4,952 nucleotides of DNA from a virus (lineage: Duplodnaviria > Heunggongvirae > Uroviricota > Caudoviricetes), in the IMG/VR virus record IMGVR_UViG_2713896771_000019; one strand, written 5' to 3'. Shown here piece by piece: positions 1,783 to 4,952 of this stretch. Position numbers and translations under genes: made by a program. Within the stretch, counting starts at the first letter, position 1. Each line of letters begins with the position of its first letter. The notes beneath the pieces are model-generated. The model worked only from the letters and a program-made list of their open reading frames with translations. It was not told the origin of the DNA and searched no databases.

Positions 1783-2005
1783 CACACAGTTTCTCCCTGA
1801 TTCTTTTAGTGTCCTCATTGAGGATGTCTGTAGCTTTTGTCAGTGAGTTTTTGGTAATTATTTTTATTGTTTTAAATTTTCTTTTGTCGTACTCCGACTG
1901 TGATTTCTTCTCCATAATCTCTACCATGCAATTTATATCCACAAGCGCATGTATCAGTACTTTCAATGCTTCGCCTGCTGCGTCCGGCGTGTTTTTATTG
2001 CACAT
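1775..2005 (-). CDS. Hypothetical protein (76 aa), Lys/Glu-rich
   Basis: Complete ORF in the track. A perfect AGGAGG SD lies 6 nt upstream of the ATG at 2005-2003. The start overlaps the 3' end of the upstream ORF by 11 bp. No recognisable motifs. Confidence 0.5.
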   Translation of the reverse strand: MCNKNTPDAAGEALKVLIHALVDINCMVEIMEKKSQSEYDKRKFKTIKIITKNSLTKATDILNEDTKRIREKLCDA

Positions 2006-2201
2006 GATGCACCTCCTGACGAATACGGGCGGCGAATACCATCACGCAGCCATCAGGAGATTGCTGGCGGGCTTCCTGTTCGCTGGTGGCCTCGATGGTA
2101 ATCACGCGCGGCTGTGCCGTGCTCAGGGCGATAAAACGCCAGATGTATTTATTCAGGTTGTGCGAGTCCCGCCCTTGCGGGTGTGTGGTATGATTTCTCA
2201 T
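1995..2201 (-). CDS. Small protein (68 aa), putative Icd-like (P4-type host cell division inhibitor-like), first gene of the minus-strand operon
   Basis: This is the C-terminal in-frame part of the 308-aa track ORF 1995..2921. The internal ATG at 2201-2199 is preceded by GAGGT. Manual translation: MRNHTTHPQGRDSHNLNKYIWRFIALSTAQPRVITIEATSEQEARQQSPDGCVMVFAARIRQEVHHVQ. The W-x-F-x-A ... EARxx ... FAAR pattern matches my recollection of Icd-like proteins in P4-like prophages; this is unverified. Confidence 0.45.
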   Translation of the reverse strand: MRNHTTHPQGRDSHNLNKYIWRFIALSTAQPRVITIEATSEQEARQQSPDGCVMVFAARIRQEVHHVQ

Positions 2202-2296
2202 AGCTACCTCGATACTTTCGCTATCGTTGGTGGTTAGAGGCTGCGAAAGGACGGCAATCCTTTCCAGCCTCGTTTGCATTGAGTGATAGTTACTCA

Positions 2297-2377
2297 ACTG
2301 GATTCCAGTATAATCACCAAGTGGAATCCACTTCAAGCATTTTGTTTTGGTCTTTTTCGTGTATACTGGATTCCAGT
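2297..2377. promoter_or_regulatory. Divergent switch region with three palindromic operator-like sites (consensus TGGAWTCCA)
   Basis: ACTGGATTCCAGT at 2297-2309 and again at 2365-2377 are identical 13-bp palindromes. GTGGAATCCAC at 2321-2331 is an 11-bp palindrome with the same half-sites. TATAAT at 2309-2314 and TATACT at 2362-2367 abut sites 1 and 3 on the plus strand. The region lies between the divergent 59-aa ORF and the minus-strand operon. Confidence 0.5.
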
Positions 2378-2397
2378 AATCACAAAGGAAACCAGAA

Positions 2398-2577
2398 ATG
2401 GAAAGAGACCATATCAATAACAAATCACAGAAATTACAGGCTCGCGCCCCGCATGAAGTTGTTGAGGCAATGGAGCAAGTCAAAGAAACGGGCGAGAGTA
2501 CTGCGCAGTTTATCGTTACAGCCATGCGTGGCGAGATCAAACGCCGCCAGCGGCGCAAGGCCAAAGAGCAGGAATAG
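2398..2577 (+). CDS. Small basic protein (59 aa), candidate DNA-binding regulator of the switch
   Basis: Found by manual translation (below the size cut-off of the ORF track): MERDHINNKSQKLQARAPHEVVEAMEQVKETGESTAQFIVTAMRGEIKRRQRRKAKEQE. AAGGAA SD lies 7 nt upstream of the ATG. A 7-bp stem-loop (2582-2600) follows the TAG stop, and a strong intrinsic terminator lies ~100 bp further downstream. It is transcribed divergently from the operon across the operator palindromes. Confidence 0.5.
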   Translation: MERDHINNKSQKLQARAPHEVVEAMEQVKETGESTAQFIVTAMRGEIKRRQRRKAKEQE

Positions 2578-2680
2578 CCCCACCGGAATTTTTTTCCGGT
2601 TACGCTTTGCCCACCAGCCGCAAATGTGGCATTGTTGGCTATGCTCATGCGTTGGGGATAACGCGCAATTAGTGTTGAAG

Positions 2681-2709
2681 GGCCACCGTAGCGGGTGGCC
2701 TTTGTTTTG
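2681..2709 (+). terminator. Rho-independent terminator (plus strand)
   Basis: Stem GGCCACC (2681-2687), loop GTAGCG, stem GGTGGCC (2694-2700), then TTTGTTTTG. No T-run on the opposite strand. Confidence 0.7.
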
Positions 2710-2746
2710 CCTGTTATCCGGCAATTGTGGCGCTTCGTCACACGGT

Positions 2747-2755
2747 TGATATAAT
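2747..2755 (+). promoter_or_regulatory. Extended -10 promoter element TGATATAAT (plus strand)
   Basis: TGnTATAAT is matched exactly at 2747-2755. The -35 is weak (TTGTGG at 2725-2730, 19-bp spacer). No protein-coding gene follows on the plus strand. Confidence 0.4.
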
Positions 2756-2761
2756 TTCCCT

Positions 2762-2832
2762 GCACTGATCCATTTTTTTCGCAGCAGGTTAATTGTTCAG
2801 AAAGGCGGCTCATTATCGGGGCCGCTTTTTTT
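2762..2832 (+). ncRNA. Candidate ~70-nt small RNA (orphan promoter-to-terminator unit)
   Basis: Predicted start ~7 nt after the extended -10; ends at the terminator 2801-2832. There is no ATG-initiated ORF in the interval. Purely structural inference. Confidence 0.25.
2801..2832 (+). terminator. Rho-independent terminator (plus strand; weak T-run on the minus side as well)
   Basis: AAAGGCGGC (2801-2809), loop, GCCGC (2821-2825), followed by seven T (2826-2832). The stem is 9-11 bp including G-U pairs. Confidence 0.65.
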
Positions 2833-2836
2833 ATGC

Positions 2837-2866
2837 CTGAAAAACACCAATTTTGTGGTTTTTCAG
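2837..2866. repeat. Perfect 9-bp inverted repeat CTGAAAAAC / GTTTTTCAG with a 12-nt spacer
   Basis: CTGAAAAAC at 2837-2845 and GTTTTTCAG at 2858-2866 are exact reverse complements. It sits immediately after the terminator. Confidence 0.5.
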
Positions 2867-2973
2867 TTTCACCAGGCCGAACGAAGCCCCGCCCCTGTAC
2901 GGGCGCATATCCAGTATTCATGGTTAGATCTCTGTATTAGTGGATGGGTGGCGGCTGTGTGCCGCCAGCCTGA

Positions 2974-3162
2974 TTAGTGAACTGCCTCGCAGCTGTCTTT
3001 CCATGCCAGAACTTCGGATAAAGACCAGCCAACGGAACGACCGCCGAGCTTACGCCGTGATGGGAATTGTCCGGCTTTTTCCAGGCGGTACCGACATGAG
3101 CGGCTCAGGCCTGTAAGTTGCTGACATTCTTTTTCACGTATAAAGCGATCTGTGCTTAACAC
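2974..3162 (-). CDS. alpA: AlpA/Vis-family phage transcriptional regulator (62 aa, MerR-like HTH)
   Basis: Track ORF; the start codon is GTG at 3162-3160, preceded by a strong SD AAGGGGG (4 nt spacer). The motif LTGLSRSCRYRLEKAGQFPSRRKLGGRSVGWSLSEVLAW matches the AlpA-family signature (HTH ... FP ... LG.RSVGW...E...W). It lies downstream of, and in the same orientation as, the integrase, as in P4-like elements. Confidence 0.8.
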   Translation of the reverse strand: MLSTDRFIREKECQQLTGLSRSCRYRLEKAGQFPSRRKLGGRSVGWSLSEVLAWKDSCEAVH

Positions 3163-3192
3163 AATTCCCCCTTTGTTGTTTCTTAAAGAGTC

Positions 3193-3240
3193 ATTGGGTG
3201 GGTTATTGGGTTGGGTTGTGTCGGATTGTGTCAGGGTGTT
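3193..3240. repeat. G/T-rich degenerate repeats (TTGGGT x3, TTGTGTC x2) in 10-bp register, upstream of the alpA start
   Basis: TTGGGT at 3194, 3206 and 3211; (G/A)TTGTGTC at 3215-3222 and 3225-3232. The region is 30-80 bp upstream of the alpA GTG on the minus strand, so it falls in the alpA promoter region. Confidence 0.45.
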
Positions 3241-3457: not shown

Positions 3458-3517
3458 TTGTTCCAGATTGTTCGCCGTTGTTCGTCGTTGTGTCTCGTTG
3501 TTTCACGTTGTGTCCGT
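3458..3517. repeat. Six tandem 10-bp repeats TTGT(T/G)(T/C)CNCG directly downstream of the int stop
   Basis: Units: ttgttccaga, ttgttcgccg, ttgttcgtcg, ttgtgtctcg, ttgtttcacg, ttgtgtccgt, contiguous with perfect 10-bp register. The array ends ~20 bp from the int TAA (3539-3541). Confidence 0.7.
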
Positions 3518-3538: not shown

Positions 3539-4789
3539 TTATATTTCTCTGGCTATTGGCAGTGTGGTTACGTTTTCGTGAGCACCTGCCAGTATCTCTA
3601 ATCGCTCTGTCCACATATCCAGCGCATTACGTTTCGCATCGATATAACGGGAGTGGTTATAGACTCGTTGCATCCCTGGCATCTGGTGAGCGGTGAGTTG
3701 TTCGACAATATGTGGATCCACGCCTAAATCGTTCAGCATCGTGGTAAACGTGCGCCGTATATCGTGTAGTGACCAGTGCGGATGGTTTAATTTTTTGTGC
3801 GTGAATCTGCCGTATTGCGACACGCTGGCTTCCTGTTTCAGTTCCCCGAGTAATAGCCCTGTGTGCCTGTTCTGCTCCACCAGCTGTGTGACGAACGGCA
3901 AAATGCTTTCCGGTATTGGCCTGAATATGGCGACCTTCGTTTTGCTGTGCTCTTTCGGTACTGTCCAGAGCATTTCCTTAAAATCCCACTCCCTGATCTC
4001 CGACAGCCTCAGTTCTCCGGTCCGGCAGCCGAACACAATCAGGAGGCGGATTAGTGCGCTGTAGTAGGGCGGGAATATTTTTTTATCCAGCGCCTGTAAT
4101 AATTCGCTCAGTTCTTTGTTGCTCAGCACGCGTTCGCTTATGCCCGGCTTTTTGCCAACGTCCACCACGTTGAGATCATCCAGAACGTTACTGACTGCGT
4201 AGCGACGTTTACGGCAGAACTTAAGCGCCTGTTTACACGCCTGCATCATGTGGCCAGATGTTACGGGTGATTTTTTGCGTATCCGGTCAAAACAGGCCAG
4301 CCAGTGACGTAACTCGCATTTATCCAGTGGCATATTGCCAATATGCTGTATGACGTGATTATTAAGGCGGCTTTTCAGGCATACGTAATCGACACGGTTT
4401 TCCTTTACGTGCATTTCCAGCCAGTAGCTGATCGCATCGCCCACCGTTACCGGCTTTAGTGCTTCCTGTATGGAGTAATTAAGCTCATGGCGTGGATTTT
4501 TTCCTTCTGCCAGCCATGCGCGACACTGTGCTGCTTTTTCCCTGGCTGCTTTCAGGCTCAGATCAGGATAATTTCCCAGTTTCAGGCGTTCCGGTGATAC
4601 CTGGCGTCCTGTTCCTGCCCTGTAGGTGAAATACCAGGTTAACAGGCCGCTGGTGGAGTGTCTGATACTCAGATTTCCACCGTCATTAAGAAAGGTGGTT
4701 TTTTGGGCTGGTGTGCCGTTGATTTTTCTTAGCTGCGTGTCGCTCAGTTTGTTAAGTGCCCTGCTCATAATTTTGAATCCGGTCATCAC
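3539..4789 (-). CDS. int: P4-family tyrosine site-specific integrase (416 aa)
   Basis: Track ORF. The N-terminal arm-binding-like region (LSDTQLRK...FLNDGGNLSIR...YFTYRAGTGRQVSPERLKLGNYPDLSLKAAREKA) resembles P4-type integrases. The C-terminal catalytic region carries the tyrosine-recombinase signatures GCRTGELRLSE, HDIRRTF and a Tyr in RVYNHSRY. The first codon at 4789 is GTG; alternative ATG starts lie at 4786 and 4768, none with a clear SD. Confidence 0.9.
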   Translation of the reverse strand: MMTGFKIMSRALNKLSDTQLRKINGTPAQKTTFLNDGGNLSIRHSTSGLLTWYFTYRAGTGRQVSPERLKLGNYPDLSLKAAREKAAQCRAWLAEGKNPRHELNYSIQEALKPVTVGDAISYWLEMHVKENRVDYVCLKSRLNNHVIQHIGNMPLDKCELRHWLACFDRIRKKSPVTSGHMMQACKQALKFCRKRRYAVSNVLDDLNVVDVGKKPGISERVLSNKELSELLQALDKKIFPPYYSALIRLLIVFGCRTGELRLSEIREWDFKEMLWTVPKEHSKTKVAIFRPIPESILPFVTQLVEQNRHTGLLLGELKQEASVSQYGRFTHKKLNHPHWSLHDIRRTFTTMLNDLGVDPHIVEQLTAHQMPGMQRVYNHSRYIDAKRNALDMWTERLEILAGAHENVTTLPIAREI

Positions 4790-4790
4790 A

Positions 4791-4814
4791 ATTAACTACA
4801 CCATTAACTACACC
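4791..4814. repeat. Perfect 12-bp tandem duplication ATTAACTACACC x2, immediately upstream of the int start
   Basis: Copies at 4791-4802 and 4803-4814 are identical and abut the int start codon region (4786-4789). Confidence 0.7.
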
Positions 4815-4830
4815 GATCATTGCACAAGGG

Positions 4831-4860
4831 GGTACAACGTGGAACAAGCTGGAACAAGAA
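4831..4860. repeat. Three tandem 10-bp repeats GG(T/A)ACAA(C/G)NT upstream of int, the inverse of the array downstream of int
   Basis: Units ggtacaacgt, ggaacaagct, ggaacaagaa. Read on the minus strand they give CTTGTTCCAG / CTTGTTCCAC / GTTGTACC, sharing the 9-mer TTGTTCCAG (plus 3458-3466; minus 4857-4849) and CACGTTGT (plus 3504-3511; minus 4841-4834) with the 3458-3517 array. Confidence 0.65.
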
Positions 4861-4952
4861 AAATTGCAATAGACTTAAAAATCAAAAACATAATGAACAA
4901 CGTGGCACATTATGAAACAGCAAAAAACACTAATTTATAAAAATCCGCTATT

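Follow-up and report, generated by a model that had tools for sequence, protein, structure and literature searches.

A gene of the P1 Icd/P4 Kil family nested in an eta-like reading frame and facing a predicted cis-antisense RNA in a phage satellite

The closest described counterparts of the locus studied here are found in phage P1 and in the satellite P4. P1 Icd binds FtsZ, blocks the Z ring and causes filamentation, and its residues 12-51 suffice for these effects (2025 study, PMC11897509). In P4, the toxic Kil protein is a truncated Eta produced from a promoter inside eta (Forti et al. 1999, as summarised in PMC10111431). In the same account, translation of full-length Eta requires transcripts of the late promoter upstream and is coupled to the alpA homologue. 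In the phage-inducible chromosomal islands (PICIs) of Gram-negative bacteria, AlpA is induced by the helper, activates its own promoter and is needed for induction, and the global repressor of these islands is described as unclear (PMC6092414). We analysed a 4,952-nucleotide stretch of the Caudoviricetes record IMGVR_UViG_2713896771_000019, hereafter the window, and in particular a 68-codon minus-strand gene, icd, that a first-pass annotation had proposed to encode an Icd-like cell-division inhibitor at the head of an operon. We report that this gene almost certainly is a genuine member of the P1 Icd/P4 Kil family, that it lies in frame within a long open reading frame (ORF) resembling P4 eta, and that its ribosome-binding site (RBS) is overlapped by a predicted cis-antisense RNA. 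The coordinates of all features are collected in Table 1.

The pattern recognised by the first-pass annotation, W-x-F-x-A, EAR and FAAR, is indeed present in the 68-aa product, as W21-R-F23-I-A25, E43-A-R45 and F56-A-A-R59. Family membership was judged with the NCBIfam profile NF033153 (phage_ICD_like, 'host cell division inhibitor Icd-like'), which has a curated cut-off of 25 bits. In this hidden Markov model search, the window protein scored 70.4 bits (E 9.5e-20), with residues 19-62 covering positions 1-48 of the 48 in the profile. The same profile gave 52.6 bits with P1 Icd, translated from icd in the P1 genome, and 76.1 bits with a P4 peptide of Kil length (65 aa). Both P1 Icd and P4 Kil fit NF033153 and therefore form one family, to which the window protein belongs. 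BLASTP aligned residues 18-60 of the window protein with residues 11-50 of P1 Icd (37% identity over 43 aa, E 3e-7). When 50,697 phage records were searched by tblastn with the 68-aa protein, a single match was returned, neither P1 nor P4; the link to P1 and P4 therefore needed a profile. The first-pass annotation had attributed the pattern to Icd-like proteins of P4-type prophages, which holds in so far as P4 Kil fits the profile, but P4 has no gene named Icd. A Pfam match to DpnD/PcfM was dismissed as noise (E 0.18).

In the alignment that includes P1 Icd, residues W21, R22, F23, E41, E43, A44, R45, P49, F56 and R59 are invariant. Three residues of P1 Icd, R15, E32 and R49, are predicted to contact FtsZ (PMC11897509). 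They correspond to R22, E41 and R59 of the window protein, all of them invariant. Moreover, the stretch homologous to P1 Icd is exactly the FtsZ-binding, filament-inducing core, P1 residues 12-51. By homology, the window protein would thus most likely bind FtsZ and block division. Several observations weigh against this. Identity is low, 37% to P1 Icd and 28% to P4 Kil, and Y24 of P1 Icd, also a predicted FtsZ contact, is not conserved. An AlphaFold2 model built with 22 close homologues reached a pLDDT of 65.7 and a pTM of 0.34, too poor for fold comparison. Finally, PHROGs attaches the label 'transcriptional repressor' to the two families that match best, phrog_6196 (E 5e-46) and phrog_1743. 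Taken at face value, these labels would make the protein the transcriptional repressor of the satellite and not a division inhibitor. We consider this extremely unlikely. No DNA-binding domain was detected in the 68-aa product with Pfam or NCBIfam, and the PHROGs label was therefore treated as inherited. In addition, of the characterised members of the family, P1 Icd acts on FtsZ and P4 Kil is lethal to cells, and a separate divergent gene of the YlcI/YnfO family, with matching operators, is present in the window. Among the best 120 database homologues, the named ones are annotated Icd-like, except five that are called 'hypothetical protein'. The gene itself is ordinary, near-identical proteins being already named Icd-like in public annotation. 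As a family, these proteins offer candidate FtsZ inhibitors of about 40 residues with natural sequence variation.

We then consider where translation of icd begins. A Shine-Dalgarno (SD) sequence, GAGG(T), stands 5-6 nt before the ATG at 2201. From 80 related viral-contig loci, 59 distinct close-relative leaders were obtained. ATG and SD are kept in all 59, point changes being confined to the GAGGTAGCT spacer, and the DNA further upstream is hypervariable. PGAP annotates the same 207-nt coding sequence in the closest E. coli relative (H1). An in-frame ATG at 2279, which would give a 94-aa form with the length of phrog_6196, was tried as the proximal start and rejected: it has no SD and lies beside a hypervariable hairpin. 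By these comparisons the ATG at 2201 is the real start, as the first-pass annotation had placed it.

The gene is also constrained as a protein. In 57 distinct coding sequences, the variable sites of codons 19-62 are distributed 6/5/21 over codon positions 1/2/3, and codon differences comprise 300 synonymous versus 85 non-synonymous changes. The Icd-like domain is therefore under protein-level selection. This bears on the possibility that icd acts mainly as a translated leader licensing the downstream replication genes, its effect on division being incidental or lost in this lineage. The P1 annotation describes icd, which overlaps ant1, as 'apparently required for expression of ant'. In the window, the next ORF begins within icd; because of this 11-nt overlap, translational coupling from icd to the 76-aa ORF is likely, and the genes of the operon are all overlapping or 5 nt apart. 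Antisense control of the RBS of a first gene, together with polarity, would also follow the logic of P1 and P4. However, the strong purifying selection on codons 19-62, and core motifs that are invariant from P1 to P4, would not be expected of a spacer peptide. A mere leader role thus appears quite unlikely to us, and we retain the reading of icd as a division-inhibitor gene.

The ORF list had joined the gene to upstream codons in one ORF of 308 aa, which the first-pass annotation called implausible. The merging is real, but the long ORF is not simply implausible, because it is organised like P4 eta. In a scan of positions 1990-3200, the icd frame contains no stop codon from 2937 to 1995, versus 12 and 29 in the other two minus-strand frames. 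The stop-free run upstream of the icd ATG amounts to 245 codons, a length that has a probability of about 4e-6 by chance at this composition. On its way the long ORF passes antisense through ylcI/ynfO and also spans the operators and the leader. The icd frame is likewise open in 69 of 81 close loci, where the median open length is 290 codons and the other two frames reach 1 and 7. Beyond the genus, 13 of 20 loci have it open too; open frames of 128-541 codons occur in genera including Cedecea, Pantoea, Klebsiella, Enterobacter, Hafnia and Serratia. This openness persists despite differing operator sets and many indels. The open frame typically starts 2-41 nt past the end of alpA. In several other alpA lineages, the first ATG is found 8-11 nt past the alpA stop and has a GGGGAG-type SD; in the window lineage, a conserved first ATG stands 52 nt past it. 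Among the 143 cluster representatives of the family, 93 have a length of 150 aa or more (median 303) and carry the Icd-like domain at their extreme C-terminus. The methionine at the short start is retained in 83 of these 93. Substitutions in the alpA-ylcI spacer are spread evenly over the codon positions of the long ORF (50/58/56), and no Pfam domain, including Phage_ASH (PF10554), was found in the 308-aa product; what is conserved is therefore the openness and not the sequence.

The P4 genome provides the reference for such a nested pair. Its ORF at 8168-8812 has 214 codons. Starting from the methionine at codon 18, it would yield a 197-codon product that begins 2 nt past the stop of ORF88/vis. 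Its last 65 codons give MATTLTPSHPEF... and we take them to be kil, as their number matches the length of the 65-aa kil gene. In the window, a short gene is similarly found in frame inside a long ORF that begins next to the alpA/vis stop, 5' of the proximal promoter.

One could suppose that the long ORF is the sole real gene, encoding a protein of about 308 aa with a C-terminal Icd-like domain, and that the 68-aa form never exists separately. The frame is open, the products predicted by many gene callers are long and have an Icd-like domain at their end, and in some long relatives a Phage_ASH domain precedes it. Against this, the upstream 240 codons have neither codon-position bias nor a domain, and they run antisense through a conserved gene as well as across a promoter and operators. 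As stated above, all close-relative leaders have the internal ATG and its GAGG SD. Furthermore, the short Kil of P4 is made separately (PMC10111431), and P1 Icd has no extension, only 11 codons being open upstream, while residues 12-51 are fully active alone (PMC11897509). It is therefore very unlikely that only the long form is made.

Some points count against an eta-like role of the frame. About 15-30% of the relatives have no long open frame, and the long ORF of the window begins 52 nt after the alpA stop with a weak SD. Mosaic segments are common to the loci, so that the samples are not independent. Clustering of the upstream DNA to count independent open-frame lineages failed, since mosaic sharing joins 93 of 98 loci; independence therefore rests on P4, on two distant Icd-like loci (L020 and L021) and on heavily indel-diverged members. 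Overall, the 308-aa ORF is probably not an artefact and behaves as P4 eta. We consider it likely that the frame is translated, and we propose that this happens only on transcripts arriving from the alpA side. By analogy, its translation would suppress Rho-dependent termination of transcripts initiated upstream, for which the avoidance of stop codons in a frame that is not constrained as protein gives indirect support.

Two side observations concern these long frames. In Escherichia ruysiae (L003), the leader/antisense-RNA module and a diverged Icd-like N-terminus at 3759-3835 lie about 170-240 nt upstream of a second in-frame Icd-like domain (4001-4195), an arrangement that may be a tandem duplication. 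In P4, Phage_ASH covers Eta residues 20-144 (L104 8330-8704; related proteins P0161, P0162, P0236 and P0250), and the underlying DNA contains both the gene of the C4/CI RNA (8420-8507) and, at 8615-8692, an isrK/seqA-like element. What is conserved in the 'Ash protein family' may be mostly RNA genes seen through the eta frame, which suggests that this Pfam family is in part a model of RNA genes.

In the leader of icd, a large hairpin (2237-2270) is accompanied by the motif CTAACCACCAAC, which is invariant, and by a small hairpin immediately next to the SD. Several features indicate that its structure belongs to the opposite strand. In the window, the minimum free energy is -36.3 kcal/mol for the antisense strand (z -5.46) versus -29.8 for the sense strand (z -3.70). 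When 67 distinct leaders were folded on both strands, the antisense strand came out as the more stable one in all but one, with a mean difference of 13.3 kcal/mol. In a 55-sequence alignment, 93.4% of the cells of the two antisense helices pair and 11 pairs change on both sides. The covariation score of these helices is 0.201, compared with 0.098 after shuffling (0/500) and 0.02-0.13 when they were slid along the same alignment. The helix cells contain 214 G.U versus 11 A.C; the helices therefore pair better in an antisense RNA, for which 93.4% of cells pair, than in the sense RNA, with 79.7%. In the antisense reading only, the large hairpin is followed by a U-rich tract (median of 5 U in 9 positions versus 1).

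A predicted promoter for such an RNA is found inside the coding region, as an extended -10 element (TGnTATGAT, TATAAT or TATGCT) at a fixed distance from the icd start codon. Among window-type variants the sole exception is L089, with TAG for TGn, and the genera carrying the element include Cedecea, Serratia, Pantoea, Klebsiella and Citrobacter. From its position, the 5' end of the antisense RNA would lie at about 2200-2202. In codons 1-18 (2148-2201), which hold the element, variable sites are distributed 5/5/2; synonymous positions are the least variable there, the reverse of the rest of the gene. In codons 8-12, we also observed a nearly invariant hairpin, CCCGC-AAGG-GCGGG, that is unexplained.

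A covariance model, R1, was built from window-type leaders. It retrieved leaders of a subfamily on which it had not been trained, on the antisense strand, with E values from 6e-11 to 6e-4. With Rfam models, the window matched RF00043, the antisense RNA of R1162-like plasmids, at 28.8 bits over 2200-2272 on the sense strand (gathering threshold 55). SymR (RF01809) matched five relatives at 26-37 bits on the antisense strand, from opposite the start codon (gathering threshold 61), and gave no match in the window. Searched with E values of up to 1, the window yielded nothing for C4, isrK or c4-a1b1. By comparison, a C4/CI antisense RNA lies about 50-55 nt upstream of the Icd/Kil gene in P4, P1, L020 and L021, and an isrK/seqA-type element is also present in P4, L020 and L021.

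The antisense interpretation has its weak points. The predicted promoter has no -35 element; a -35-like TTGCGG at 2175-2180 was rejected because of its 8-nt spacing. The U-tail of the window (GUUUGCAUU) is weak. All Rfam matches of the leaders are below the gathering scores, and R1 did not match K-12 SymR, so that homology between the leader and SymR was not confirmed. Because of these sub-threshold scores and of the failure of R1 to find K-12 SymR, the predicted RNA is best described as similar in design to SymR and to the plasmid counter-transcript RNAs and as a member of neither family. In the searchable library that was consulted, we found no literature tying SymR to Icd-like genes or antisense RNA to PICIs, which is an absence of evidence only.

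The leader structure might instead act in the mRNA itself, hiding or exposing the SD, with no antisense RNA being made. The sense strand too is more stable than its shuffled controls, a 5-bp hairpin abuts the SD, and the sole Rfam match to the leader in the window, RF00043, is on the sense strand. On the other hand, the excess of G.U over A.C cells, the better pairing of the antisense strand and the U-tract confined to the antisense reading all speak against it, as does a correctly placed extended -10 conserved inside a coding region with frozen synonymous sites. Concerning RF00043, its consensus ends in GGAG...AUGGCUAC, which we take to be the start of RSF1010 repA. If so, the model represents the mRNA sense of a known counter-transcript locus. 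An action in the mRNA alone therefore seems unlikely to us, and we favour, as fairly probable, that a cis-antisense RNA covering the icd RBS is made.

The predicted promoter of the icd operon has a -35 TTGAAG (2336-2331) and a -10 TATACT (2312-2307) separated by an 18-nt spacer. No SD-bearing ORF was seen in the icd leader, and icd is the first SD-bearing ORF 3' of this promoter, in agreement with its earlier description as first gene of the operon. It had also been placed directly under operator palindromes. Palindromes of 13-15 bp do overlap the promoter, but the icd ATG is about 100-135 nt further on, behind a structured leader of about 99 nt. The divergent YlcI/YnfO protein has a weak Pfam match to PSK_trans_fac (Rv0623-like transcription factor). 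In two relatives, L094 and L101, YlcI is 100% identical and the operators are as in the window; other relatives differ in both, and where the YlcI/YnfO variant is another one, the corresponding site holds other inverted repeats. This suggests that the YlcI/YnfO variants and their matching repeats could constitute repressor/operator specificity groups. YlcI/YnfO is probably the operator-binding repressor, or at least a candidate for it. Tight control of icd probably involves a cis-antisense RNA and translation-dependent anti-termination as well as the operators. Separately, two strong terminator-like hairpins with U-tails (2678-2703 and about 2806-2834, plus strand) are found 3' of ylcI, inside the antisense long ORF, and a sub-threshold match to MicX (18.9 bits) spans them.

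Together, these elements suggest the following model. As long as the island is quiescent, an operator-binding protein, probably YlcI/YnfO, would repress the proximal promoter (about 2336-2307). On transcripts that start from this promoter, icd would be the first translated gene. A constitutive antisense RNA (about 2200-2275) would pair with the icd SD and AUG of any escaping mRNA and block its translation. With the head of a coupled operon untranslated, polarity would silence orf76, orf87, DUF4222 and the RepA helicase. Once a helper phage turns on alpA, upstream transcripts would be translated through the long frame, in phase, into icd. Ribosomes on the eta-like frame would protect the transcript against Rho and also dislodge the antisense RNA, allowing read-through of the operon. 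Icd/Kil would then be made and, by homology, could arrest division during satellite replication. We give an even chance to the complete scheme, that is an Icd/Kil gene at the head of an early (replication) operon, controlled by an antisense RNA and by eta-like read-through.

The surroundings of the gene are those of a satellite. On the minus strand, the window reads integrase, alpA, regulatory zone, icd, two small ORFs, DUF4222 and the start of a RepA-type helicase. The closest relative is an island of E. coli O177:H21 (NZ_CP016546), inserted in yifB, with 93% identity over 92% of the window. That island carries int, alpA, ylcI, the icd-like gene, DUF4222, RepA, SSB, ProQ/FinO, capsid, protease, portal, head-completion, HNH and terminase genes. 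As capsid-forming PICIs (cf-PICIs) we understand islands of about 15 kb that, besides int and alpA, encode a capsid, portal, protease and terminase of their own. The make-up of the NZ_CP016546 island is that described for cf-PICIs (10.1101/2022.09.08.507074). Of the genes that bear on this, the 4.95-kb window has only int, alpA and the RepA helicase. As judged from gene content, the element is probably a cf-PICI-type satellite; packaging genes are seen in its closest relative and not in the window.

Additional motifs were noted around the integrase gene. Repeats of the GTTGTnnC type in 10-bp phase flank the int-alpA intergenic region (3205-3239 and 3469-3511). They recur in inverted orientation beyond the int 5' end (4824-4926), and ATTAACTACACC occurs twice at 4787-4810. 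These repeats, together with ATTAACTACACC, are probably arm-type binding sites for Int/AlpA near the attachment site. The int-alpA RNA (Rfam RF02996) was found at 45-63 bits in related islands (L004, L007, L013, L016 and L018), whereas the window gave no match to it with E values of up to 1.

Table 1. Position, strand and properties of annotated and predicted features of the window
Feature	Position	Strand	Remarks
P4-type integrase gene	3539-4789	minus	
alpA, 62 aa	2974-3162, stop 2974-2976	minus	Pfam Phage_AlpA 65.8 bits
eta-like ORF, 308 aa	1995..2921, frame open from 2936	minus	in frame with icd, contains icd
YlcI/YnfO-family gene, 59 aa	2398..2577	plus	divergent; NF041551 72.3 bits
Second copy of operator palindrome ACTGGATTCCAGT	2365-2377		over divergent ylcI promoter
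Predicted proximal icd-operon promoter and two overlapping palindromic operators	2297..2336	minus	consensus scan
Operator palindrome AAGTGGAATCCACTT	2319-2333		overlaps icd promoter
Operator palindrome ACTGGATTCCAGT	2297-2309		overlaps icd promoter
Predicted cis-antisense RNA, about 75 nt	2200..2275	plus	complementary to icd start codon, SD and leader
GC-rich terminator-like hairpin of predicted antisense RNA	2237-2270	plus	followed by GUUUGCAUU
5' stem-loop of predicted antisense RNA			anti-SD pairs with GUUGGUGGUU
Ribosome-binding region, CGAGGTAGCT then ATG	2202..2214	minus	directly 3' of 5-bp hairpin CGATA...TATCG
Icd/Kil-like gene icd, 68 aa plus stop	1995..2201	minus	product MRNHTTHPQGRDSHNLNKYIWRFIALSTAQPRVITIEATSEQEARQQSPDGCVMVFAARIRQEVHHVQ
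Extended -10 TGgTATGAT, predicted antisense promoter	2186..2194	plus	within icd codons 3-6
Next ORF, 76 aa	1775..2005	minus	ATG overlaps last 11 nt of icd; matches phrog_5146

More broadly, we tentatively propose, at somewhat less than even chances, that many enterobacterial satellites of the PICI and cf-PICI types, as a large class, have swapped the C4/CI immunity RNA of P1 and P4 for an undescribed cis-antisense RNA related to SymR and to the IncQ counter-transcript, which silences Icd/Kil and, by polarity, the replication operon, and that the alpA-icd frame serves as an anti-polarity ORF. If this were true, it would be through translation of a stop-free alpA-icd frame, devoid of a protein function of its own, that helper-induced AlpA physically turns on the island. 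A leader common to these systems would tie the control of symE by SymR and of IncQ repA to satellite immunity modules in evolution. Nested ORFs combined with a cis-antisense RNA would give a testable mechanism for the quiescence and induction of PICIs. The nested arrangement would also explain why gene callers disagree here, with products ranging from about 50 to more than 600 aa.

Comparison with known systems shows how far the locus follows existing designs. As in P4, a short Icd-like gene, toxic in the case of Kil (65 aa), is nested in frame within a long frame corresponding to Eta; Eta starts where the alpA homologue (vis/ORF88) stops, the proximal promoter lies within it, and in both satellites the integrase and AlpA-family genes share one strand. 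However, P4 Eta has Phage_ASH (82.4 bits) and overlaps the isrK/seqA and C4/CI RNA genes, whereas the window ORF does neither. Instead, the latter crosses the divergent YlcI/YnfO gene and palindromic operators and faces the predicted cis-antisense RNA. The replication gene is also different, the alpha primase in P4 versus the RepA-type helicase in the window.

With P1, the window shares a protein of the same NCBIfam family, Icd (73 aa) being encoded in the immI operon c4-icd-ant. In P1 also, icd is translated first in an operon under immunity control, an antisense RNA targets its RBS, and its stop codon and the beginning of the following gene (ant1) overlap. In contrast, P1 uses the processed C4 RNA, which acts in trans and is encoded upstream on the same strand, and C4 is missing from the window. 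P1 icd, with its 11 open codons, is not preceded by a long in-frame ORF, and it is followed by an antirepressor gene where the window has replication genes.

The predicted antisense RNA finds its likeness in SymR of E. coli K-12, which controls symE, and in the repA counter-transcript of the IncQ plasmids R1162/RSF1010. These are cis-antisense RNAs of about 75-77 nt that begin opposite the start codon, cover the SD and have a GC-rich hairpin at their end, and the motif UAAYCACMAA (sense) / GUGRUUAG (antisense) is common to all; the protected genes, symE and repA, are unrelated to icd. Lastly, the order int, alpA, regulatory zone and replication is that of cf-PICIs of the EcCIEDL933 type and of Gram-negative PICIs. 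Overall, the annotation of the gene is mostly ordinary and its value is in the setting, a control architecture that varies the design known from P4 and P1.

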